From: Terriglobia bacterium
Lineage (GTDB): Bacteria > Acidobacteriota > Terriglobia > 20CM-2-55-15
Reading direction: 5' to 3'
Length of the DNA stretch: 64,000 nucleotides
Assembly: GCA_965198225.1 (NCBI GenBank)
Contig: CBDAOY010000006.1
Coordinates: 800,001-864,000, forward strand
Translations under genes and position numbers: made by a program
Notes under the pieces: generated by a model
The model's input: only the letters and a program-made list of their open reading frames with translations
What the model was told of the DNA's origin: nothing
The model's database searches: none
Part shown: positions 34,494 to 44,795 of the stretch, one piece after another
Layout of the letters: the number at the start of each line of letters is the position of its first letter
Numbering within the stretch: position 1 is the first letter of the stretch

Positions 34494-36755
34494 TTGATAT
34501 TCGCCTTGCCTTTGAAGCCGATTGTTCTGGCTCTGGCGCTCCTCGGCGCTCAGATGCCCCCGCCTCTCGGCGCGCCCGACGAAGCCCTCCTCGATGCCGC
34601 TCAACGCAACGACATGAACGACATGAACGACGTTCTGCGGGCCCTCCAGCAGGGAGCGGATGTCAATGCGCAGAAGTTTTACGGTGGCCGCGCCTTGCTG
34701 TTTGCGGCGACCAACGCGAACCTCGACATGGTGGAGCTGCTTGTCGAACGCGGGGCGGACCTCATGGTCGAGGTCACGCCATACCTCAGCGGAGTCGTCG
34801 GTGGGGTGATGCGCAGCGGGAATATGGGAATGACCCTGTATCTGCTGGAAAGGCTCGAGGAAGGATCGGCAGGAATCTCGGCCGTCGTCCTGTACGCCGT
34901 CGAACAGAAGAATCTCACGCTGCTCGAAGCGGCGTTCGCCCGAGCCGACATACCCGATACGGTGATCGCGGCCAGTCATGCGTTTGCCGTGAGGACCGAC
35001 AATGCCGAGATGGCAGCGGTGCTGGAGGCCGAGATGGGCCGACGTCCTGGCTCGGCAGATCTAGTCGTCACGCTGCCTCGGGCCGATCTGGACGCGTTCA
35101 CGGGCTCGTATCTGGACCTCAGCACCGGCCAGACTCAGAGGCTGACGTTCGATATCGCTCCCGACGACGTGAACCTCAGCGTGTCGATCACGGGCGCGAC
35201 GCGCGAGGTCTCACTGATGCTGGTCCCAACGTCGGATTCCACCTTCATCACCCCGCAGGTCGCCCACGCCAGTTTCCGATTCGATCGCCGGGATGGCGTC
35301 GTCGGGAGCGTGGTTTTCAGCAATCCGACCAACGGGAAGAATCCAACGCTCACCTACCTGCGCGCCGATGACGAGGCCGAGACGCTGGCGGCTGCTTCGC
35401 TGCCGAACGCGGGTCCGATCGACCTGTCCACGGTGCCGCGCGACACACCGCGACCGTGGCCGTCTTTCCGTGGGCCGAGCGCATCCGGCATCGCCGACGG
35501 GCAAGGCGCCGTCACGGAATGGGACGCCGGGACCGGCCGGAACATTCGCTGGAAGACGCCCATTCCCGGCATAGCGAACGCGAGCCCCATCATCTGGGGG
35601 AATCGCGTCTTCGTCGCCACCGCGGTCAGTAGCTCGGGCAACAGTTTTTTCCGGACCGGAGATTACAGCGGCGCATCGTCGGTCGACGATCTGTCCGAGC
35701 ATAGCTGGAGACTCTATGCGCTCGACGTCGAAAGCGGGCGCGTCGTCTGGGAGCGGGAAGTCCACCAGGGCGTGCCGCGCACGAAGCGTCACATGAAAGG
35801 TAGCCAGGCCAGCTCGACGCCGGCTACCGACGGACGCTACGTCGTCGTCATCTTCGGTACGGTCGGAATGTTTGCGACTTACGACATTGACGGCGAGCTG
35901 CTTTGGAAGAAGGACCTGGGGGTATTGGGCAACGGCTCCTATTACGATTCCAACGACCAGTGGGGCCACAGCAGTTCACCGATCATCTACGGGGACACGG
36001 TCATCCTTCAGATCGATCGCCAGAAAGATCCGTTTGTGGCGGCATATGATCTCGCAACGGGACGGGAGCTATGGCGGACGAGCCGGGAGGGTGAGATCTC
36101 CTCCTGGGGCACTCCGACGATCGTGACCGCAAGGTCGGGCGGAGATGAACTGATCACGAACGGCACCTCGATCAGGGGGTACGATCCAAAGACCGGCGAG
36201 CTGCGCTGGACGCTCGCACCGAATTCCGACGTCGCGATACCGACTCCGGTGGCCGGCCCCGACCTCGTTTACGTCGCTGCAGGGTATCCCCCGATCCGTC
36301 CGATCTACGCGATTCGACCGGGGTCCACCGGTAACATTTCTCTGGAAGACAGCGCCAGTTCCAACGAAGCCGTCGCCTGGAGCGCCCGGCGAGGCGGTCC
36401 CTACATCCCGACGCCGATCTTCTATCGAGGCGTGCTCTACGTCCTCAGAAACAACGGCGTCATCACGGGCTACGACGGCGGCACCGGTGAACGCGTCTAC
36501 CAGGCGCGGGTCGGCCGCGTTGGCGGCGCATTCACTGCCTCGCCCATCGCCGCCGACGGCCGCCTGTATCTCGTCAACGAAGACGGCGACGCGTATGTGC
36601 TCGAGGCAGGCCGGGAATACGTTTTGATATCGCGGAACGACATGAACGAAATCGTCATGACGACGCCCGCGATTTCAGACGGCCTGATTGTGATCCGCAC
36701 GTTCGGCCATGTTTACGGAATCGGAGATACGAGTGACAGGGGGCGTGAGAAGTAG
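34494..36755 (+). CDS. Secreted protein: N-terminal ankyrin repeats plus C-terminal PQQ-like (BamB-type) beta-propeller
   Basis: Signal-like N-terminus; GADVNA...ALLFAA...VELLVERGAD ankyrin; WPSFRGP, SSPII, TGRELW and FTASP propeller motifs. Start codon uncertain. Confidence 0.8.
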   Translation: MIFALPLKPIVLALALLGAQMPPPLGAPDEALLDAAQRNDMNDMNDVLRALQQGADVNAQKFYGGRALLFAATNANLDMVELLVERGADLMVEVTPYLSGVVGGVMRSGNMGMTLYLLERLEEGSAGISAVVLYAVEQKNLTLLEAAFARADIPDTVIAASHAFAVRTDNAEMAAVLEAEMGRRPGSADLVVTLPRADLDAFTGSYLDLSTGQTQRLTFDIAPDDVNLSVSITGATREVSLMLVPTSDSTFITPQVAHASFRFDRRDGVVGSVVFSNPTNGKNPTLTYLRADDEAETLAAASLPNAGPIDLSTVPRDTPRPWPSFRGPSASGIADGQGAVTEWDAGTGRNIRWKTPIPGIANASPIIWGNRVFVATAVSSSGNSFFRTGDYSGASSVDDLSEHSWRLYALDVESGRVVWEREVHQGVPRTKRHMKGSQASSTPATDGRYVVVIFGTVGMFATYDIDGELLWKKDLGVLGNGSYYDSNDQWGHSSSPIIYGDTVILQIDRQKDPFVAAYDLATGRELWRTSREGEISSWGTPTIVTARSGGDELITNGTSIRGYDPKTGELRWTLAPNSDVAIPTPVAGPDLVYVAAGYPPIRPIYAIRPGSTGNISLEDSASSNEAVAWSARRGGPYIPTPIFYRGVLYVLRNNGVITGYDGGTGERVYQARVGRVGGAFTASPIAADGRLYLVNEDGDAYVLEAGREYVLISRNDMNEIVMTTPAISDGLIVIRTFGHVYGIGDTSDRGREK

Positions 36756-36770
36756 TCAGTAGTCGGTAGT

Positions 36771-38089
36771 CAGTAGTGTCCGACACGTTTCAGAATAGAT
36801 TCAATTGGTTAGCGTTAGAGTGTCGATTTGAGATGAGCCCGGATTCGGTAAGCAGCTGAAAAAGAGGCACATTCTCAAATGGTGTGACACTCAAGATCTG
36901 TAACATTGAGTGCAACGACAAAGGCAAATTCAGTTCTTTACGCACGATAGCCACCAGCACGTAAACGCTCACGGCGACCCAGACCTGAGTTTTGACGGCG
37001 TTCTCGGAAGTGCCGAAGAAACGCTTGATGCGCAGGTGCTGTTTGATCCATTTGAAGAACAGCTCCACCTGCCAGCGCAGGCGATACAACTCGCAGATGG
37101 TCCGGGCTGGGAGCGTCATGTGATTGGTCAAGAAAACCAGTCGCCGACCCTCGGGATCGCGATAACGAATGCGACGCAACCGTTCGGGGTAGCCGCGGCG
37201 GGAGCGAAATACGGTCAGTTCGATAGTCTGATCGCAGATGAGGCCCGTGTGTCGGTCGACGGGTTGGGAGTAGATGCGCTTGAACGCGAAGTCGGATCGA
37301 GCACGGGTGACGAAGAAGCTCCCGGCTTGATTGAAGGTGTAGAGGCGATCGAAGTCGAGATAGCCGCGGTCCATCACGTAGAAAGCACCGGCTTCGGCGA
37401 TGAGCAGGTCGAGAACGTTGACGTCGTGCAGCCTGCCTTCGGAGATGTGGATGAAGCTGGGGATACCGCCACGCAGGTCGAGCAGCGTATGAAGCTTCAC
37501 CGCGGCTTCGGTCTTTCGAAAGTGCGCCCAAGGGAACAGCGACAAGCACAGACTGATCATCGTGGAGTCGAGCGCGTAGACGGTTTCGTCCAGGTCGATC
37601 CCGAGCGGCTCGTGGGCATACAAGCGGCGTGCGATGCGGATCAGCGCCTGAGCGAACTCTCCGTAGATGCGCCAGTCGCGAGACTCGTTGGCATCGGCCA
37701 ATGCACTGCGGCTGACCTTCCCGTGCAACCCCAGGTGGTAGAGCTTGGCGGGTTGGGCTCGCAAGCAGGCTTGAATGTCGCGCAGGCTCTCCCGATAGGT
37801 CAGCTGAGCGAAGGCCATGCATAGGAACTGGTCCAGGCAACTGAATGTGCGGACGTTGAAATTGCCGCGGTACTTGGTCACCAGACGACGGAACGTATAC
37901 CACGGCGCGAACTCCATGACTTGTGCGAAGACCAGCTTGCCAGCGTGCATCGGTGCCTCCCAGAAACCTCTGGAAAGGCTGCCGCGAAGGCCGCACAGAA
38001 ATCAAATCGTTAACACCTTGACAAGCGCGCTACATCGCGTCAGTTCTAACTTTAGGACCGGGAGGTCCTAAATCTGTCGGACACTACTG
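36771..38089 (-). mobile_element. Complete IS4-family insertion sequence (1319 bp) with 15-bp TIRs and 9-bp target duplication
   Basis: CAGTAGTGTCCGACA (36771-36785) / TGTCGGACACTACTG (38075-38089). Direct repeat GTCGGTAGT at 36762-36770 and 38090-38098. Confidence 0.93.
36790..37950 (-). CDS. IS4-family DDE transposase (DUF4372-type N-terminus)
   Basis: AFAQLTYRESLRDI, ALDST, KLH, MDRGY, YRLRWQVELFFKWIKQ (YREK-like) motifs. Confidence 0.93.
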   Translation of the reverse strand: MHAGKLVFAQVMEFAPWYTFRRLVTKYRGNFNVRTFSCLDQFLCMAFAQLTYRESLRDIQACLRAQPAKLYHLGLHGKVSRSALADANESRDWRIYGEFAQALIRIARRLYAHEPLGIDLDETVYALDSTMISLCLSLFPWAHFRKTEAAVKLHTLLDLRGGIPSFIHISEGRLHDVNVLDLLIAEAGAFYVMDRGYLDFDRLYTFNQAGSFFVTRARSDFAFKRIYSQPVDRHTGLICDQTIELTVFRSRRGYPERLRRIRYRDPEGRRLVFLTNHMTLPARTICELYRLRWQVELFFKWIKQHLRIKRFFGTSENAVKTQVWVAVSVYVLVAIVRKELNLPLSLHSMLQILSVTPFENVPLFQLLTESGLISNRHSNANQLNLF

Positions 38090-38134
38090 GTCGGTAGTCA
38101 GTAGTCAGTTGGCGGCTGCGCCGCGGCGCTCGAA

Positions 38135-38384
38135 GCTAGCTGGAGCTTTCACTTCCGGGCTTCCAGCCATTAGGTCACCCCAATAACTGCCGGATATAAC
38201 TACGGCGCCATACTGGAAATTGCGCCGGCGGGACTTGAACCCGCTAGCACAGCAGCTAGCCTCGCTGCGCCACTTCCTCGCTGTCTACGCTTCTCTCCCG
38301 CCGGTCACCCGGCGACAGGCAAGACTCGCTACCGGCCTGCCCTCTACGGCTTTAACCGGACTGGACTTTCACCGGTTATTTCCC
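38135..38384 (-). mobile_element. Two joined 5'-end (domain I) remnants of group II introns on the minus strand
   Basis: Minus strand reads GGTGAAAGTCC...GGTAGCGAGTCTTGC...GGTGAC...GAAGCGTAGACAGCG, similar to D1 of intron 2 at 39835-39885. It is followed by GCGCAGCGAGGCTAGC...GCGGGTTCAAGTCCCGCCGGC from 38270. No D5 or ORF is associated. Confidence 0.6.
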
Positions 38385-39050
38385 CTTGTCATCTGTAGCG
38401 CTGTCGAATAGTGTGAAACACGTCGATTCGTTGTCGAATGCAATTGTTTTCAAGCCTTTAAGCCTTGGGGAAACTCTCAAGTCGGCGGCGGCGATCGGTA
38501 TGGCGTCATGCCGCTGGGAAACAATCCAGAAAGCCTCCACGAGACCTCCGACTCTACCTTTGTGCCGAAATGGATCAGAGGGGCCTGCTGTCAGTGAAGA
38601 TCACTAAAACACCCATGAGTGAGCGCCATCCGAGAGGGACAGCGTACAGACGGACAAGAGGGCTCATTTCAACCGCGCAGACTGTTACAATCCGCTTCAC
38701 GCCTGAAGACACAGTGATTCCGTCGATCGAGATCCAGCGGGTACTTCCTGCAATGGGGTCGATTCGCGACACGGCGGCCTCTCTATTCGGCTTTACGGCT
38801 GATTTCAATGTGCGCCGTGAGAAGGCGCCAATCCTCAGCGGGTGCGAATCCCGCCCGGCAACTGTCGCTCCAGTCGGTAGCAATCGGAGCGGATGGTGGA
38901 GGTAACAACATCGTCTGAAGCACTCCGATGACAAAGGGCCGCCTCGGGCGGCTCAGCGACCACACAGGCCACAACGCGAGTAAACGCCGAGCAGGCCTCG
39001 AAACGCACAATGCGGAAGCCGACCCGCCGTTGAAACGGGGAAGGCGTCAC

Positions 39051-39710
39051 GAGCGGAAGGGGACCCCGCAAGGGTCTCCGATCTCGCCGCTGTTCAGCAA
39101 CATCTACATGCGGCGCTTCATTCTGGGCTGGAAGGTGCTGGGCTACGCCCGGCACTTCAAGGCGGAAATCGTCAACTACGCGGATGACTTCGCGGTTCTC
39201 GGTCGCGCGCCGGCAGCGGTGATGCTAGCGGCGGTCGAAGCCCTGATAAAACGTCTGAAGTTGGCGATGAACGTTGAGAAGACCCGCTGCTGCCGGGTGC
39301 CGGAGGAATCGATGACGTTCCTCGGCTACCGGATCGGTTGCAACTACCGGCCGGGTACGGGTGCCGCCTACATAGGCACACATCCGAGCCGGGAAAGCGT
39401 CCAGAGCATCTGCCGTCGTGTGAGCGAGTTGACCGCGCCGCGCCACGTGCTCCTGCCGTCGGGAGTCGTAGTGGGACGCCTCAACCGGTTGCTGATCGGT
39501 TGGGCGAACTATTTCATCCTGGGACAGGTCCGCCCGGCCTACAAGGCGATTGATCAACACGCGACCCGGCGGCTGCGCCAGTGGCTCTGCCGTAAGCACA
39601 AGGTGCGGACCGGGAAACACGTGCGCTTCCCGTCCGAGCGGCTCTGGTCCGATTACGGGCTCACGCATCTTGCGCCGCGTACGGCGAGCTTTCCGTGGGC
39701 GAAGGCATGA
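39051..39710 (+). pseudogene. C-terminal half of the intron 1 reverse transcriptase/maturase (RT4 to domain X)
   Basis: GTPQGSPISPLFSNIY, YADDF, EKT, FLGY, LNRLLIGWANYF. The N-terminal RT domains are missing and the fragment is fused directly to domain I RNA sequence. Confidence 0.88.
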
Positions 39711-40162
39711 TCTCGTCCGAGAGCCGGATGCGGGAAATCCGCATGTCCGGTTCGATGAGCGTTGCGCCTTGCAAGCGCATGAGATCCAGTCGCCTGAGAT
39801 GGCGGCCGTGGCAGAGCCTAGCCGGCAGCCACGTACCGAGTCTTGCGTGGTGGTCGGTGACGGACACTGCGAAGCGTAGACAGGGAGGGAGTAGGCCGGA
39901 ACACCAGTGAACGGAAAGATAGCCCCGAAATCGAACGTGGTTGAAGTAGCCGACCCTGTCGCTCTAGGGGGAAGGCGGAATCGCAGGGCACGCAATGGCA
40001 AGTGCCCTGGGGTGCTTCCGGGGTTCGTACCGCCGGCATGCAACCAAGGATTTCATGGGAACAAGGGAGATCCGTCAGGTTCAAGCGGAGCTTGTAGGGT
40101 TGGACAAGCCAACAACGCGAGGAAGACCCGAAGGCCTGTCGGAAGTCAGACTGGCTGATAGT

Positions 40163-41975
40163 GCGTGCCTGGCAGCACGCGTTTCCGGCGGGTTAAAGTC
40201 CCGCTCGGCCCGAGGCCACGGGTCGATATCCAACAAGTGGGGGTAATGCCTCACTGGCCGAAGTGTAGACAGGTAGTGCAGATGCCTAAACGGGCACGAA
40301 GGCGAAAGCCGGATACGGCCAAGGCAAAGCTGGAGCCAGCTACGGAAACTTTGGAGGGCAGGGCGCCCACCGCGAGGTGGGGTCTGAAGGGCATGAGGAG
40401 AACCACCGGGTCGTAATCGACGGGAGCCATCCCGAGGATGAACCGGTCGGCCAAAGATGGGGAATGGTCGAGCCCGCACTATTGGGGCGAAGGCGCATTG
40501 GTTCCACCCCATCGCACCAAGGTGTGTGCGGGCGACACGGTGGAGAAGAGACGCGAGTGACCCAGGGAGGCCTGGTATCGTCCGAGCGGAAGGTAAGGTC
40601 GAGATGATGTGGCACCCGCAGACGAAAGGGCGGGCAACCGAGAAGACAAACATCGACCTAGAGCCCTGCGCGGTAGGTGCGGATATAAGCGAGAGCGAAA
40701 TTCCGGCCGACGCGGTGTCAGGAATCGGATCGGGGAATAGTGCGTGCCTGGCAGCACGCGTTTCCGGCGGGTTAAAGTCCCGCTCGGCCCGAGGCCACGG
40801 GTCGATATCCAACAAGTGGGGGTAATGCCTCACTGGCCGAAGTGTAGACAGGTAGTGCAGATGCCTAAACGGGCACGAAGGCGAAAGCCGGATACGGCCA
40901 AGGCAAAGCTGGAGCCAGCTACGGAAACTTTGGAGGGCAGGGCGCCCACCGCGAGGTGGGGTCTGAAGGGCATGAGGAGAACCACCGGGTCGTAATCGAC
41001 GGGAGCCATCCCGAGGATGAACCGGTCGGCCAAAGATGGGGAATGGTCGAGCCCGCACTATTGGGGCGAAGGCGCATTGGTTCCACCCCATCGCACCAAG
41101 GTGTGTGCGGGCGACACGGTGGAGAAGAGACGCGAGTGACCCAGGGAGGCCTGGTATCGTCCGAGCGGAAGGTAAGGTCGAGATGATGTGGCACCCGCAG
41201 ACGAAAGGGCGGGCAACCGAGAAGACAAACATCGACCTAGAGCCCTGCGCGGTAGGTGCGGATATAAGCGAGAGCGAAATTCCGGCCGACGCGGTGTCAG
41301 GAATCGGATCGGGGAATAGTACTCAGGAACGAGACGGCAAACATAAGGTCTCGGATCGTTGCTTCGAGCAGCGGCGCTGGCGGGTCCAAAAGGCCCGTTG
41401 GAGGGGGAAGTCCCCGTACTCAGTCGTGAATGTGCGAGCGATGGGAAACGCGGAGATATCGTGGAATTGGATAGTTCCCTTAGCGAAAGACCCAAACGCG
41501 GTACGAACGAAGCCGCCACCTGCCGCCACACAGCGAATTCCGAACGAGGAGCAACTGAGGAAAGCGGCTTGCGGGAAAACCGCACGAGCCGTTTGATTGA
41601 GCGGACGGTGGAGCGGACGGTGGGATCGGCCCGACCACTTTCGACTCTACACTCAGGAACGAGACGGCAAACATAAGGTCTCGGATCGTTGCTTCGAGCA
41701 GCGGCGCTGGCGGGTCCAAAAGGCCCGTTGGAGGGGGAAGTCCCCGTACTCAGTCGTGAATGTGCGAGCGATGGGAAACGCGGAGATATCGTGAACTTGG
41801 ATAGTTCCCTTAGCGAAAGACCCAAACGCGGTACGAACGAAGCCGCCACCTGCCGCCACACAGCGAATTCCGAACGAGGAGCAACTGAGGAAAGCGGCTT
41901 GCGGGAAAACCGCACGAGCCGTTTGATTGAGCGGACGGTGGAAGGGCCGATCGGCCCGACCACTTTCGACTCTAC
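40163..41975 (+). ncRNA. ORF-less group II intron copy 3A (904 nt: 40163-40741 + 41651-41975), interrupted by copy 3B
   Basis: Starts GCGTGCCTGGCAGCACGC. D5 AAGCGGCTTGCGGGAAAACCGCACGAGCCGTTT. Ends CGACTCTAC. No RT ORF. EBS1 ACTATT at 40478-40483. Confidence 0.85.
40742..41650 (+). ncRNA. ORF-less group II intron copy 3B (909 nt, uninterrupted, innermost)
   Basis: 5' 579 nt appear identical to 3A. Contains the empty site GGGGAATAGT/ACTCAGG (41311-41327). D5 at about 41562-41594. Ends GACTCTAC. Confidence 0.88.
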
Positions 41976-42101
41976 ACTCCGAGGTCGGGAGAGCCGATCA
42001 CATGGGGAAGCGGCCAGCAGAAGTGGACTCGTTCTTGGGAAACATGAGCTCCATGCAACGGGAGGATACGGTCCTCTATGCAACGAGAGGAACAACCAGT
42101 C

Positions 42102-43424
42102 ATGGAAACGAAACTGGAACGAATAGCGGCGAAAGCTCGGAGTGAGCCAAAGCTCCGGTTCACGTCACTGGCGCATCATGTCACCCGAGAGCGTGTGTGG
42201 AAGAACCTGTGTCAAGTGCCCCGCAACACGGCTCCCGGATGTGATGGTCAGAGGGTACCGGAGGCGAAGGAGGAATTCGGAGTCTGGGTGGAGCCAATGC
42301 TCCAGTCTGTTCACCAGAAGGGATATCGCGCTCCGCCGATTCGGCGGGTGTATATCCCCAAGCCCGGCAAGCAGGAGAAACGTCCCCTGGGCGTGCCCTG
42401 TGTTCAAGATCGGGCCCTTCAGCGCAGCGTGGCCGAGGTATTGGTCGCCATCTACGAGCAGGACTTCTTGCCCTGTTCCTTTGGTGGCCGGCCTGGGCTG
42501 GGCGCCCACAATGCACTGGCAACCCTCCATGAGGTGATTTCCGGATGCAAGGTGAGTTGGGTGTTGGAGGCGGACTTGAAGAACTTTTTCGGGAGTTTAG
42601 ACCATGGATGGCTACTCCGCTTTGTGGAGCATCGAGTCGGAGATCCGCGGATCATCAGTCTGATACGACGATGGTTAAAGGCGGGCGTTTTCGAAGACGG
42701 GGAATTGCATTCGAACGAAGAGGGAACCCCGCAAGGTGGGTCGATCAGCGTTCTGCTGAGCAATCTGTACCTGCATTATGTGCTTGACCTGTGGTTTGAC
42801 CGGATGGTCCGGCCACGCCTGAAGGGTGAAGCGTATCTGGTGCGGTACATCGACGACTTTGTCGTGTGTTTCCAATATCGGGACGATGCGCTTCGTTTCC
42901 AGAACGTTCTGCGCAAGCGACTGGGAAAGTTTGGACTGGTTCCGGAGCCGACCAAGACGAAGCTCGTCGAATTCGGCCGCTATGCCCAGCGCGATGTCGT
43001 CCGGCGCGGGAGAAAACGTCCAGAGACGATCTATTTTCTGGGCATGACCCTGTACTGTACGCGTAATCGCAAAGGCAATTTTAGAGTGGGACTGCGAACA
43101 GAGAAGTCTCGACTTCGACGCAGTCTGGCTCATCTACGCGGCGTGATGAGGCGAATGCGTCACTTGCCGGTCCGGGAGCAAGTGCACAATCTGAACCGAG
43201 TCTTGCGCGGGCACTACGCCTACTATGGCATTGCCGGGAACCTCCGGGCTCTGCAGCACGTCGCTCGGGCCGTGGAACGTTACTGGCGCCAAATGCTCAG
43301 CAGTCGTAGTCGTGCAGGCTTCGTCCGGTGGGAAGTATTCAACCGGATTCAGCTGCACTTTCCGTTACAGCGTCCCAAGTTGGCTCTCCGCTATCGGGAG
43401 TTCCAGTCTCTCGCTGTGCTGTAA
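42102..43424 (+). CDS. ltrA: Group II intron reverse transcriptase/maturase, intact, no endonuclease domain, YIDD active site
   Basis: FTSLAHH, RRVYIPK...RPLGVP, ADLKNFF, GTPQGG, VRYIDDF, FLG, LNRVLRGHYAYY. Followed directly by D5/D6. GAGG precedes ATG 42102. Confidence 0.93.
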   Translation: METKLERIAAKARSEPKLRFTSLAHHVTRERVWKNLCQVPRNTAPGCDGQRVPEAKEEFGVWVEPMLQSVHQKGYRAPPIRRVYIPKPGKQEKRPLGVPCVQDRALQRSVAEVLVAIYEQDFLPCSFGGRPGLGAHNALATLHEVISGCKVSWVLEADLKNFFGSLDHGWLLRFVEHRVGDPRIISLIRRWLKAGVFEDGELHSNEEGTPQGGSISVLLSNLYLHYVLDLWFDRMVRPRLKGEAYLVRYIDDFVVCFQYRDDALRFQNVLRKRLGKFGLVPEPTKTKLVEFGRYAQRDVVRRGRKRPETIYFLGMTLYCTRNRKGNFRVGLRTEKSRLRRSLAHLRGVMRRMRHLPVREQVHNLNRVLRGHYAYYGIAGNLRALQHVARAVERYWRQMLSSRSRAGFVRWEVFNRIQLHFPLQRPKLALRYREFQSLAVL

Positions 43425-43620
43425 ATCCAATTCTGAAGAGCGCAGTGCGGGAAATCCGCACGCTGCGTTCTGTGGGAGCCGGAGGCGGGCAACTGCCTCC
43501 GGCCACCCGGTGCGACTGGAAACGAAGCCACGGCGAGGAGTGAGGCACCGGAATCGGCGAAAGCCACCGGCAACAGCTACCCCCTTTGCCTACCGCCACC
43601 GCGCCAGTCGTCGACTCTAC

Positions 43621-43703
43621 ACGAAGTAACGAAGGCAACGAAGATCGGAAAAGATATTGCTATCTTCGTCTCGCTTCGTGCCCTTCGTTACTTCGTGTTA
43701 AAA
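43621..43703. repeat. Imperfect palindrome of ACGAAG-containing 8-9-mer units (insertion target of intron 1)
   Basis: ACGAAGTAACGAAGG...CCTTCGTTACTTCGT inverted arms. Confidence 0.75.
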
Positions 43704-43742: not shown

Positions 43743-44795
43743 TCACTCGGGGCCCAGCAGCAGCTTTCGGTCGAGGTCGGCGACATTCCCGGCGCCCACT
43801 AGAAACATGGCGGTCCTCATTTCCCGGAACAACCGTTCGCCCGCCGCCACGACAGCGTCGGCCGATTCCCTGGCGGCGAGCAGAAACGGTCGGGCGACGG
43901 CCACGTAGTCAGCACCGAGCGCCAGCGCTTTGATGGCCTGGATCCCGTTCCGAATGCCTCCGCTGGCGACGATCCTTGCCGATCCTGTTCGGTCGGGATC
44001 GATCCTTTCCAGGATCCATCGCGTTGGCAGGCCGAAGTCGCTGAACATCTCACCGAAGGATGGATCCTGGCTCAGTCGGGCCTCGACCGCGGCCCAACTC
44101 GTTCCGTCGTTGCCTGAGACGTCGATGTAGCCGACACCAAGGCCGGCAATGGTTTCGACCAGTTCGGGGGCGATTCCACCGCCGCATTCCTTCACGTAGA
44201 CCGGTAGTGGACAGCGTTGGACAAAGTCGTCCAGGTGTGATGTGAGGTTTCTGAAGTCGGTGTCCCCACCCTCCTGGATCGATTCCTGAAGCGCGTTGAG
44301 GTGGAGTCCGAAAACATCCGGTCGGATGCGTTCGATGATCTGCGCGGCCTGGTCCCAGGCCAGACCGTAGTTGAAACTGACCAGTCCCAGGTTCGCAATC
44401 AAGGGGACCGACGGGGCAAGGTCGCGCACTTCGAAGCTGGGCACGGCCGCATCGTCCTTGACCATCACCTTCATCGATCCCAGGCCGAGAGGTACCTGTA
44501 GCCGTTCTGCCCCTGCGGCCAGGTTCGAGTTGAGCCGTTTGAACTCCTCTCCGACACCCCCGGTCATCGACGAGATGATCAACGGCGCCGCGATCGCTCG
44601 TCCGGCGAATCGGGTCTCTGTTGAAACTTCCGACAGAGCGAGTTCCGGCAGGGCGTTGTAGCGTAGCTTGAGGTCTGCAAAACTGTCGCGTCGCAGGTCC
44701 ACCGACGGGTCCAGACACACTTCGATGTGGCCCTGCTTACGTCTGTTCAGCGACTCGTTCAGGTCGGCGTTGGCCTCGCCCCCGGGGTCCGGCAT
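43743..44795 (-). CDS. fni: Type 2 isopentenyl-diphosphate delta-isomerase (FMN-dependent)
   Basis: RKQGHI, ISSMTGG, LGLGS, IANLG, HLNALQESIQEGGD, VKECG, GTSW, SGGIR. Confidence 0.93.
   Translation of the reverse strand: MPDPGGEANADLNESLNRRKQGHIEVCLDPSVDLRRDSFADLKLRYNALPELALSEVSTETRFAGRAIAAPLIISSMTGGVGEEFKRLNSNLAAGAERLQVPLGLGSMKVMVKDDAAVPSFEVRDLAPSVPLIANLGLVSFNYGLAWDQAAQIIERIRPDVFGLHLNALQESIQEGGDTDFRNLTSHLDDFVQRCPLPVYVKECGGGIAPELVETIAGLGVGYIDVSGNDGTSWAAVEARLSQDPSFGEMFSDFGLPTRWILERIDPDRTGSARIVASGGIRNGIQAIKALALGADYVAVARPFLLAARESADAVVAAGERLFREMRTAMFLVGAGNVADLDRKLLLGPE

Follow-up and report, generated by a model that had tools for sequence, protein, structure and literature searches.

The window, by which we mean the whole 64,000-nt stretch of DNA analyzed and to whose positions all coordinates refer, contains a nest of group II introns in which an ORF-less intron of about 904 nt (the element) lies inside domain 3 (D3) of an unrelated intron and again inside D3 of its own copy. 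The nested arrangement is confirmed, and very probably it is best explained by EBS1-guided homing of an ORF-less intron into D3 of introns, itself included. The 909-nt copy 3B (40742-41650) is located within the 904-nt copy 3A (40163-40741 plus 41651-41975), 3A within the unrelated RT-encoding group II intron 2 (39762-43511), and intron 2 in turn interrupts the D6 stem of intron 1, the fourth intron of the nest. The parts of the nest are as follows, with a slash marking an insertion point.

38810-39761, + strand: intron 1, 5' part; the outermost intron, a deleted derivative, with GUGCG 5' end (read directly), D1 fragment, RT C-terminal remnant ORF 38928-39710 (partial RVT_1 plus GIIM), D5 at about 39721-39754, and then the D6 stem 5' strand GAGCG; RF02003 at 38836-38979 (82.8 bits) and RF00029 at 39719-39780 (40.3 bits).
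39762-40162, + strand: intron 2 (host H1), 5' part; UUGCG 5' end, D1, and D2; RF02005 at 39797-40031 (137.2 bits); in D1 (hairpin fold) an EBS1-type loop of its own, CGCUC, which complements the 5' flank GAGCG; AGA 40148-40150, which we assign to J2/3; D3 (by parse) with basal stem 5' strand CUGGCUG 40151-40157 and loop AUAGU 40158-40162.
40163-40741, + strand: element copy 3A, positions 1-579; the same stretch of 3B is 100% identical; GCGUG 5' end, D1, D2, and the D3 5' strand through AAUAGU.
40742-41650, + strand: element copy 3B, full length at 909 nt and lodged in the 3A D3 loop; D3 at 41310-41416 (stem CGGGGA 41310-41315, loop AUAGU/A 41316-41321, GAAG 41407-41410, stem UCCCCG 41411-41416), D4 stub with the ORF deletion joint near 41536, D5-D6 at 41560-41650 (RF00029) with a 13-nt duplication in D6.
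41651-41975, + strand: element copy 3A, positions 580-904, with 97% identity to positions 580-909 of 3B; rest of D3, D4 stub, D5, a D6 whose fold leaves an A bulged at -7, 3' end CUCUAC.
41976-43511, + strand: intron 2 (host H1), 3' part; D3 distal hairpin, GAAG 42007-42010, basal stem 3' strand CGGCCAG 42011-42017; in D4 the IEP ORF 42078-43424 (448 aa, RT and maturase without endonuclease domain; RVT_1 plus GIIM, TIGR04416 317 bits); D5-D6 at 43436-43511 (RF00029, 47.1 bits).
43512-43621, + strand: intron 1, 3' part; the rest of the long D6, ending CCAGUCGUCG-A-CUC-UAC, contiguous with 39761 in uninterrupted copies.

Direct reading of the junctions and the confirmed repeats bear out the first-pass annotation, which had placed 3B inside 3A at AATAGT/ACTCAGG with a visible empty site and no target duplication. 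Positions 40742-41320 repeat 40163-40741 with 100% identity (repeat search, direct reading, and blastn), and 41651-41975 is 97-98% identical to 41321-41650, the 98% figure applying over 300 nt (repeat search and blastn); the two copies differ in D6. The junctions of 3B in 3A read AATAGT/GCGTGCC...CTCTAC/ACTCAGG, and the empty site AATAGTACTCAGG is found uninterrupted at 41315-41327 inside 3B. A one-base shift of the boundary either way loses the match, and the ends of the element are therefore unambiguous. Copy 3A has the flanks GATAGT/.../ACTCCGAGG inside intron 2, and the claim that this host is an unrelated intron also stands, with its RF02005 match, its own RT ORF, and its D5-D6 match. The boundary between introns 1 and 2 was set by uninterrupted copies at C5:743295-743464 and C6:5959-6128, and the 3' boundary of intron 2 was taken from empty intron-1 sites. 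The 3' end of intron 1 appears to lie at 43621; in its D6, as read by eye, GAGCGGCGACUGG pairs with CCAGUCGUCG(A)CUC.

The identification of the element as an ORF-less group II intron of about 904 nt, already proposed from the letters alone, is supported by its 3' end and by ORF-bearing parents. A match to RF00029 at 41560-41650 (37.9 bits, E 1e-5, about 2 bits short of the curated cut-off of 40 bits) stops exactly at the 3' junction. Group II introns are recognized by a D5 of about 34 nt that carries an AGC triad and a bulge of 2 nt, followed by a D6 whose bulged branch A lies 7-8 nt before the 3' terminus; in the fold of the element, D5 has 14 bp together with the triad and the 2-nt bulge, and the A at -7 in D6 is unpaired. 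Covariance models for D1-D4 match weakly, RF02001 at 40945-41052 with 24.5 bits (cut-off 32) and RF02003 with 15 bits (cut-off 49). Comparison of empty and filled sites gives the 5' end GCGUG, with C at position 2 where the group II consensus is GUGYG; a 77% identical relative in genome G032 begins with GUGUG. The minimum free energy fold of the full 904-nt element was globally non-native, and local helices alone were kept. Two copies elsewhere in the genome retain, in D4, an intact ORF for a 415-aa RT/maturase (RVT_1 plus GIIM, TIGR04416 392 bits, without endonuclease domain) that is absent from the element. The position of this ORF coincides with the deletion joint of the element, which has lost almost exactly the ORF. 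By sequence comparison, the element is thus an ORF-deletion derivative of an RT/maturase-encoding intron without an endonuclease domain. The motif of the parent IEP is WADD, whereas RTs usually have YADD. With two intact parent IEPs in the same genome, the earlier suggestion that RT is supplied in trans is plausible.

The hexamer ACTATT occurs at 40478-40483 in 3A and at 41057-41062 in 3B, within the 9-nt loop of a small hairpin whose architecture is that of the intron 2 loop matching the flank of intron 2. In group II introns the EBS1 loop of D1 complements roughly the last 6 nt of the 5' exon; here ACUAUU pairs with AAUAGU and GAUAGU, and the variant ACUAUG with CAUAGU, in the copies residing at these sites. 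The G allele (ACUAUG) is present at 3/3 CAUAGU sites, whereas none of the 14 copies with the U allele (ACUAUU) is at CAUAGU; these are found at GAUAGU and at the element's own AAUAGU. The G032 relative carries CCAAAG in the same loop and CUUUGG in its flank. Because of these two natural covariations, of alleles with sites and in the relative, the assignment of ACTATT to EBS1 made in the first-pass annotation holds. Inspection by eye showed no conserved EBS2/IBS2 pairing, and no conserved IBS2 is visible in the targets, since positions -7 to -12 are covarying D3 stems; class C (IIC) introns are characterized by a short EBS1, the lack of EBS2, and a target that adjoins a DNA stem-loop.

In 7/8 insertion contexts the site falls within the D3 internal loop, on its 5' strand (stem, AUAGU/A ... 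GAAG, stem), with a covarying basal stem, (A/G)UAGU/A, GAAG, and the stem complement. At least seven different host sequences are invaded at the homologous D3 position. The invaded introns match at least three Rfam D1-D4 models (RF02005, RF02001, and RF01999) and are oriented as the element, whose own D3 is also invaded; a host of the RF02003 type is suggested by a single 3' flank. As in a twintron, there is a complete inner intron in an EBS-compatible site in the same orientation. The target helix is the last helical domain ahead of the ORF-bearing D4, the AGN trinucleotide before the site (GGA in host H7) is in our reading J2/3, and the published residue numbers of the conserved D3 S-turn in O. 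iheyensis agree with the target motif. An alternative in which the sequence before the site is the closing strand of D1 was ruled out by the stem/GAAG parse and the published S-turn residues. For H3, a long stem from the automatic search was spurious and a 4-bp GGUC/GACC closure was used instead. Natural negative controls are provided by three H2-like introns that read AUACUA and are empty, whereas the AUAGUA copy is occupied, and by intron-1-type D3, which reads GCAGUA and is empty at no fewer than four loci. Among the H3 introns, 8/9 carry CAUAGUA yet are empty. The genome contains 469 unoccupied NATAGTA heptamers, about 20 of them in intron D3, indicating that a 7-nt match alone is insufficient to explain the near-exclusive residence in introns.

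A blastn search of the genome with 3B gave 33 HSPs. About 20 copies or parts of the element are present, compared with two intact parent ORFs. In the genome, 19/20 intact 5' flanks end in (A/G)UA(G/A)U and 21/21 3' flanks begin with A. The claim that ATAGTAC is a conserved D3 motif stands for AGUA and is overstated beyond it, the next base being C or G. The copy at C5:3834, with flank GATGGC, fits no target pattern and is probably rearranged. Self-insertion junctions occur at six loci, one of them inside the ectopic copy H8, which overlaps the 3' end of an ORF in antisense orientation, and the same self-nest is found in a second genome, G020. Short public contigs also carry nested junctions with 25-30 nt per side, the 5' junction in runs X10 and X16 and the 3' one in X2. 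Metagenome contigs yielded no match to an exact 30-mer taken from the element's 5' end. In genome G040, which is intron-poor with only two sub-threshold D5 matches, three ORF-bearing copies are located at non-intron sites, (C/U)GUAGU/A, one of them 12 nt past a stop codon. D3 is thus the main but not the sole kind of site: the targeting of D3 proposed earlier, own D3 included, is borne out in all but one ectopic context and these three sites. The further proposal that nesting could continue without limit is logical, with a depth of two as the only one observed.

One contig from an RNA library fuses 40162 exactly to 41976, which corresponds to the ligated D3 of intron 2. This is a single 159-nt contig from one metatranscriptome, and the same joint was found neither in two other public runs (run parts without cover not being counted as evidence), including the RNA run X10, nor in the genome. 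It gives a hint that the element may splice from D3 of intron 2; the contig could also reflect DNA carryover from a strain whose intron 2 is uninvaded. The joint of 40741 to 41651 in X10 equals single-copy DNA loci and therefore says nothing on splicing.

In the mechanism that we favor, the EBS1 loop in D1 (ACUAUU, or the older allele ACUAUG) would base-pair with (N)AUAGU, the first base of the 3' exon always being A. The target heptamer is the 5' strand of the conserved D3 internal loop (S-turn, AGUA opposite GAA), and because it is conserved in D3, the element would reverse-splice and be copied into several structural types of intron. The change of G to U in EBS1 would have allowed all 6 bp to form with AAUAGU in the element's own D3, and copies would therefore invade copies. 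The two intact parent copies would act as the source of RT in trans, with DNA strands at the replication fork probably serving as primers, as in other introns without an endonuclease domain. The host D3 would be restored only when the element splices out, and nests would be trimmed by homologous recombination between nested halves.

A competing view, possible but in our judgment doubtful, is that there is no preference for D3: the short motif (N)(A/G)UAGU/A would be recognized anywhere, and D3 residence would reflect survivorship. Selection purging gene insertions could then be the cause of intron residence instead of a true D3 preference. This would accommodate the ORF-bearing G040 copies outside introns, including the one next to a stop codon, in a genome with so few D5 matches, as well as the antisense position of H8 at an ORF 3' end and the lack of a visible IBS2. 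It is more difficult to reconcile with the approximately 450 matching heptamers outside introns that are empty while intron 2 and H4 are saturated. Intron 2 has no empty site, its six 5' halves and eight 3' halves all abutting the element or a deletion, and H4 has none empty and two occupied; moreover, both EBS1 alleles fit the D3 variant that each occupies.

Less probable still is that intron 2 together with a single or nested element was duplicated as a unit, by retrohoming or segmental duplication, with the variants produced by recombination. At every locus the H1 flanks agree over 45 nt with 100% identity, the intron 2 copies are 99.8-100% identical, forms consisting of a 5' part plus a full copy or a full copy plus a 3' part resemble recombination products, and the 5' flanks of H6 and H7 are fused to 3' flanks of other host types; many H1-borne copies may indeed be duplicates of one composite and not separate events. 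Such copying leaves unexplained the homologous D3 insertion in at least seven host sequences, the self-insertion in the ectopic H8 copy, and the matching of alleles to targets. That the nest is an assembly artefact, a repeat collapsed or mis-joined, we consider extremely improbable. Copies that are 97-100% identical are difficult for short-read assemblers, and public contigs end at repeat edges, but the self-junctions occur at six loci with different flanks, the nest recurs in the G020 assembly, contigs in three runs span the junctions, and 3A and 3B do not have the same D6. Homing guided by EBS1 into D3 remains our preferred explanation.

A wider and more tentative reading, which we would not expect to hold in full, is that group II introns are the hosts of this lineage, a true hyperparasite with an EBS1 adapted to the D3 S-turn. 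Such a motif would be hard for any ribozyme to change, allowing infection of introns of any class. The host ribozyme would be silenced until the element excises, and the element would ride on the transcription and perhaps the mobility of its host; reverse splicing may even target the host intron RNA, not DNA. A one-base change in EBS1 would have led to self-targeting and to open-ended nesting limited only by recombination. If this reading were correct, the window would hold four nesting layers: intron 1 outermost, then intron 2, then two copies of the element, one within the other.

Homing of introns into introns is already known. In Methanosarcina acetivorans (Dai and Zimmerly, 2003, as summarized in the review PMC4424553), repeated site-specific homing into group II introns yields nests up to several deep in non-coding DNA, each a perpetual homing site, with insertion balanced by recombinational deletion. 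As in our genome, ORF-less and RT-encoding introns coexist there and home into introns. The targets in that archaeon are, per the title, related intron ORFs, in contrast to the conserved D3 internal loop targeted here in a bacterium, where the element invades its own copies as well as hosts of three or more Rfam D1-D4 model types. The ORF-less TeI3 introns (family F3) of Thermosynechococcus elongatus sit inside TeI4 introns, in twintrons viewed as a proliferation strategy (PMC2882425). They are likewise deletion derivatives that home through EBS/IBS pairing into a conserved site of another mobile intron, mobilized there in trans by a related IEP. As described in that paper, however, the TeI3 site is between the first two ATGs of the DIV ORF in one host family, with the core intact, and its text does not report self-insertion. 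The "zombie" twintron cox1i1149g2 of Lycopodiaceae mitochondria is a self-inserted group II intron with copies at other sites (PMC7049729). According to the account given there, it reflects an old, conserved event in domain IV of an organelle intron, and its inner intron no longer splices, whereas self-insertion here is in D3, recurrent, and between near-identical copies. In the mat1f twintrons of Porphyridium plastids, one inner intron occupies two outer introns and a gene, which resembles our case, but the target described is in DIV and the inner intron encodes its own IEP (PMC4476101). None of the main texts in the literature searched described a D3-targeting intron.

The homing targets described in these texts (ORFs and domain IV) tolerate insertions, whereas the motif targeted here belongs to the ribozyme core and is under structural constraint. 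A D3 target explains the host range across intron classes and leads to the prediction that a host intron stays inactive until the intron within it has spliced. The two EBS1 alleles, together with the natural IBS1 variants, provide a natural system in which to study how targets are chosen, how the element invades itself, and how insertion is balanced against recombination. The number of copies or parts of the element relative to intact parent ORFs indicates that ORF-less introns can proliferate strongly in bacteria.

A nest of introns four layers deep lies on the + strand of the window, as seen by direct reading of 38800-43700 together with a repeat search. The layers are as follows (the element is an ORF-less group II intron of about 904 nt, with an outer copy, 3A, and an inner copy, 3B).

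38810-39761 and 43512-43621, + strand: intron 1, the outermost; 5' end GUGCG, RF02003 match of 82.8 bits, RT remnant, D5 at about 39721-39754
39762-43511, + strand: intron 2, extent fixed by blastn of intron 2 minus the element
39797-40031, + strand: RF02005 match of intron 2 (Rfam, 137 bits)
42078-43424, + strand: RT/maturase ORF of intron 2, 448 aa, between its two Rfam matches (TIGR04416, 317 bits)
43436-43511, + strand: D5-D6 match of intron 2 (Rfam, 47 bits)
40163-40741 and 41651-41975, + strand: 3A, 904 nt
40742-41650, + strand: 3B, 909 nt

The segment 40742-41320 repeats 40163-40741 and 41321-41650 repeats 41651-41975, indicating that a complete 3B interrupts 3A. The junctions read AATAGT/GCGTGCC...CTCTAC/ACTCAGG (a slash marks the point of insertion), and the empty site AATAGTACTCAGG is uninterrupted within 3B at 41315-41327. 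A one-base shift of either boundary spoils the fit, so both ends are defined to the base, with no duplication. The host of 3A is intron 2, at GATAGT/.../ACTCCGAGG; on all these points the first-pass annotation was correct. The D6 of 3B (41603-41628) carries a 13-nt duplication, GAGCGGACGGTGG, in place of part of the distal hairpin present in 3A and most other copies, and keeps the basal stem and bulged A. The flanks of intron 2 are found joined, as uninterrupted intron 1, at two loci (blastn; C5:743295-743464 and C6:5959-6128), indicating that intron 2 is itself an insertion, in the D6 stem of intron 1. Intron 2, with 5' end UUGCG, is inserted there at GAUGAGCG/GCGACUGG (flanks 39754-39761 and 43512-43519), where GAGCG is matched by its D1 loop CGCUC. 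The start of the element's own D6 is near-identical, GAUUGAGCG/G, so that intron 2 might target it too, but no insertion of this kind was observed.

The region upstream of intron 1 is a graveyard of intron pieces. It holds a truncated RF02005-type fragment with an internal deletion (38230-38369, - strand, 59 bits) and a stray CCGACTCTAC (38549-38556, + strand), identical to the 3' ends of the element and of intron 1. Just upstream of the nest is an insertion sequence with a 386-aa transposase (DUF4372 and DDE_Tnp_1; 36793-37950, - strand), flanked by inverted repeats rich in GTAGTCAGTAGTC at about 36755-36790 and 38075-38112. Immediately past the presumed 3' boundary of intron 1 is ACGAAGTAACGAAGG...CCTTCGTTACTTCGT (43622-43700), an imperfect long hairpin that also follows the stop of an FMN-dependent dehydrogenase gene (43746-44795, - strand) and is probably the terminator of that gene.

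The element is a group II intron without an ORF, as had been proposed. Scanned alone, 3B matches RF00029 (D5-D6) at 41560-41650 with 37.9 bits (E 1e-5), two bits below the curated cut-off, and the match terminates exactly at the last base of the element. D5 folds into 14 bp with a 2-nt bulge, and the D6 stem leaves one base unpaired, an A at position -7 relative to the 3' end. The D1-D4 models match weakly (RF02001, 24.5 bits), and the 5' end GCGUG is one base away from GUGYG. At three loci the same RNA is about 1250 nt longer, the extra stretch, between element positions 795 and 798, being a 415-aa ORF with a TTG start right at the joint; this makes the element an ORF-less deletion derivative of such parents. 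The ORF (RVT_1 and GIIM, TIGR04416 392 bits) lacks an endonuclease domain, is 32% identical to the protein of intron 2, and is intact in two of the three parents and frameshifted in the third. Its RT active-site motif (L012:254-1498, - strand) is WADD in both intact copies; YADD is the usual motif of group II intron RTs. The RT that the first-pass annotation expected to be supplied in trans thus has a likely source in the same genome, and its action on the element would follow the T. elongatus precedent (PMC2882425) and a review (PMC4424553).

ACUAUU is part of a 9-nt hairpin loop; a 3-bp stem and then a 4-bp stem, separated by a GA/GAA internal loop, lead up to it. Intron 2 has a hairpin of the same layout, in a region that RF02005 also models as a hairpin, whose loop CGCUC matches its own 5' flank GAGCG. 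Two natural covariations confirm the proposed assignment of ACUAUU as EBS1. Among the 19 copies with the region, 14 have ACUAUU (one degenerate) and five ACUAUG; the G allele is found at all three CAUAGU sites and in the two parents, at CGUAAU and GAUAGU, whereas the U allele is found at GAUAGU, AAUAGU, CGUAGU and AGUAGU, with none of its 14 copies at CAUAGU. In an ORF-bearing relative from another genome (G032, 77% identical), with its boundary set by a GUGUG start and a tandem copy, the homologous loop is CCAAAG and the 5' flank ends in CUUUGG. All inner, invading copies have the U allele. Against AAUAGU of the element itself this allele pairs at all six positions by Watson-Crick rules, and the G allele would leave a mismatch at -6.

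A blastn search of the 6.4-Mb genome with 3B gave 33 HSPs. The insertion contexts, H1 to H8, were parsed after in-silico removal of the element.

Insertion contexts by the last six bases at 20 intact 5' ends, with Rfam model of the host, D3 basal stem, and D3 site and occupancy.
GATAGT (8 of 20): H1, RF02005, CUGGCUG with CGGCCAG, GAUAGUA, no contiguous empty site (six 5' halves and eight 3' halves all adjoin the element or a deletion); H4, RF02001, UCCAUGG with UCAUGGA, GAUAGUA, 2 occupied, 0 empty
AATAGT (4 of 20): the element itself, CGGGGA with UCCCCG, AAUAGUA, still empty in at least 11 copies
CATAGT (3 of 20): H2, RF02005, UCCGCUC with GGGCGGA, CAUAGUA, 1 occupied; H3, RF02001, GGUC with GACC, CAUAGUA, 1 occupied, 8 empty; H5, RF02005, CCGCGUC with GACGCGG
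CGTAGT (2 of 20): H7, RF01999, AUGGCCC with GGGCCGU (native flank, from G020)
AGTAGT (1 of 20): H8
CGTAAT (1 of 20): H6, RF01999
GATGGC (1 of 20): copy C5:3834, probably rearranged
Without the element: H2-like introns (92% relatives), CAUACUA, 3 empty; intron-1 type, GCAGUA, empty at at least four loci

Rfam scans of the flanks at 11 loci, with H1 taken from a separate scan of the window, found group II models at H1-H7, in each case upstream of the element and in its orientation; H8 and C5:3834 had none. In seven of the eight contexts the order is a trinucleotide, a basal stem, (A/G)UAGU/A, a distal part of 18-154 nt, GAAG and the stem complement, and the basal stems covary among hosts, in agreement with the proposal that the target is D3 of other introns and of the element. 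In intron 2, D4 and the ORF come directly after this helix. The trinucleotide, which we read as a putative J2/3, is AGA, AGC or AGG (GGA in H7) and directly precedes the stem in most hosts, lying a few bases ahead in H3 and the element. The published residue numbers of the conserved D3 S-turn in the O. iheyensis intron fall on the same AUAGUA/GAAG motif in what we take to be its sequence, so that the cut falls within the S-turn, on its AGUA strand. J2/3 of that intron is A287-G288-C289 in published papers. An RF02003 match lies near the rearranged parent copy C6:408309, whose 3' flank is identical to D3 of intron-1-type introns.

The narrower expectation that all copies lie at RATAGT/ACT in D3 held in part: A is the first base past the element at 21 of 21 3' ends, but the 5' flanks vary and H8 is ectopic, antisense over the final codons of an ORF (234 aa, membrane-like). 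Unoccupied NATAGTA heptamers number 469 in the genome (60.4% G+C), and intron D3 accounts for only about 20. Base pairing alone therefore does not explain the distribution, which must also reflect extra recognition, an RNA-level route or selection against insertion into genes. In another genome, G040, three ORF-bearing G-allele copies lie at (C/U)GUAGU/A, one of them 12 nt past a stop codon; no Rfam intron models were found near them, and the only two D5 matches in the whole of G040 are sub-threshold, indicating that the lineage can live outside introns.

Of the six loci with self-junctions, three hold full nests (C6:840163, C5:62160-64012 and C8:158737), one a 5' part followed by a full copy (C4:150750) and two a full copy followed by a 3' part (C5:812868 and C5:3834). 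By analogy with the Methanosarcina account (PMC4424553), the partial forms would be what remains after the repeated halves of a nest recombine. The 5' flanks of H6 and H7 continue, past the element, into 3' flanks from other host types (G020 has the 3' flank native to H7), which points to recombination between dispersed copies. At C5:889958, C4:150750 and C5:503072 the element separates an RF01999-type 5' half of the host intron from an RF02005-type 3' half, and such chimeras suggest that dispersed copies serve as substrates for recombination and so rearrange the genome.

At 99-100% identity, the element, intron 2 and the H1-borne nest recur in G020 (L031, L042, L047 and L050), a genome assigned to a different genus within the family, which suggests recent transfer, mis-binning, or very close kinship at odds with the taxonomy. 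Public runs containing the window stretch or part of it amount to 20 run rows from nine studies, of which four runs (X1, X2, X10 and X16) were compared in detail. X10 and X16 have contigs across the nested 5' junction, and X2 across the nested 3' junction, with 25-30 nt per side; in X1 and X2 the intron-2 5' junction is seen only in the filled state. In X16, an RNA library, one 159-nt contig joins 40162 to 41976 exactly, a joint absent from the genome (blastn, intron 2 minus the element). The contig hints weakly at splicing in vivo; the joint may instead derive from carried-over DNA of another strain. Contigs in X1, a different sample, have ends of the element beside flanks absent from this genome, ...GAGCAGGTCGT/ on the 5' side and /ACCGACACCCC on the 3' side; these are further insertion sites in related strains, possibly outside introns.

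Precedents are the nested intron arrays of M. acetivorans (PMC4424553), the ORF-less TeI3 introns placed in DIV of TeI4 in T. elongatus (PMC2882425), self-invasion in DIV in lycophyte mitochondria (PMC7049729) and the mat1f twintrons of Porphyridium (PMC4476101). A literature search without supplements or the 2003 M. acetivorans paper turned up no account of an intron that homes into the D3 S-turn, of a cross-class host range or of recurrent self-invasion in bacteria. We hold it very probable that this ORF-less intron homes by EBS1 into the D3 internal loop of other introns and of its own copies. Intron-in-intron homing is of a known kind; the D3 S-turn target, the cross-class hosts and the recurrent bacterial self-invasion, as read from sequence, appear to be new.
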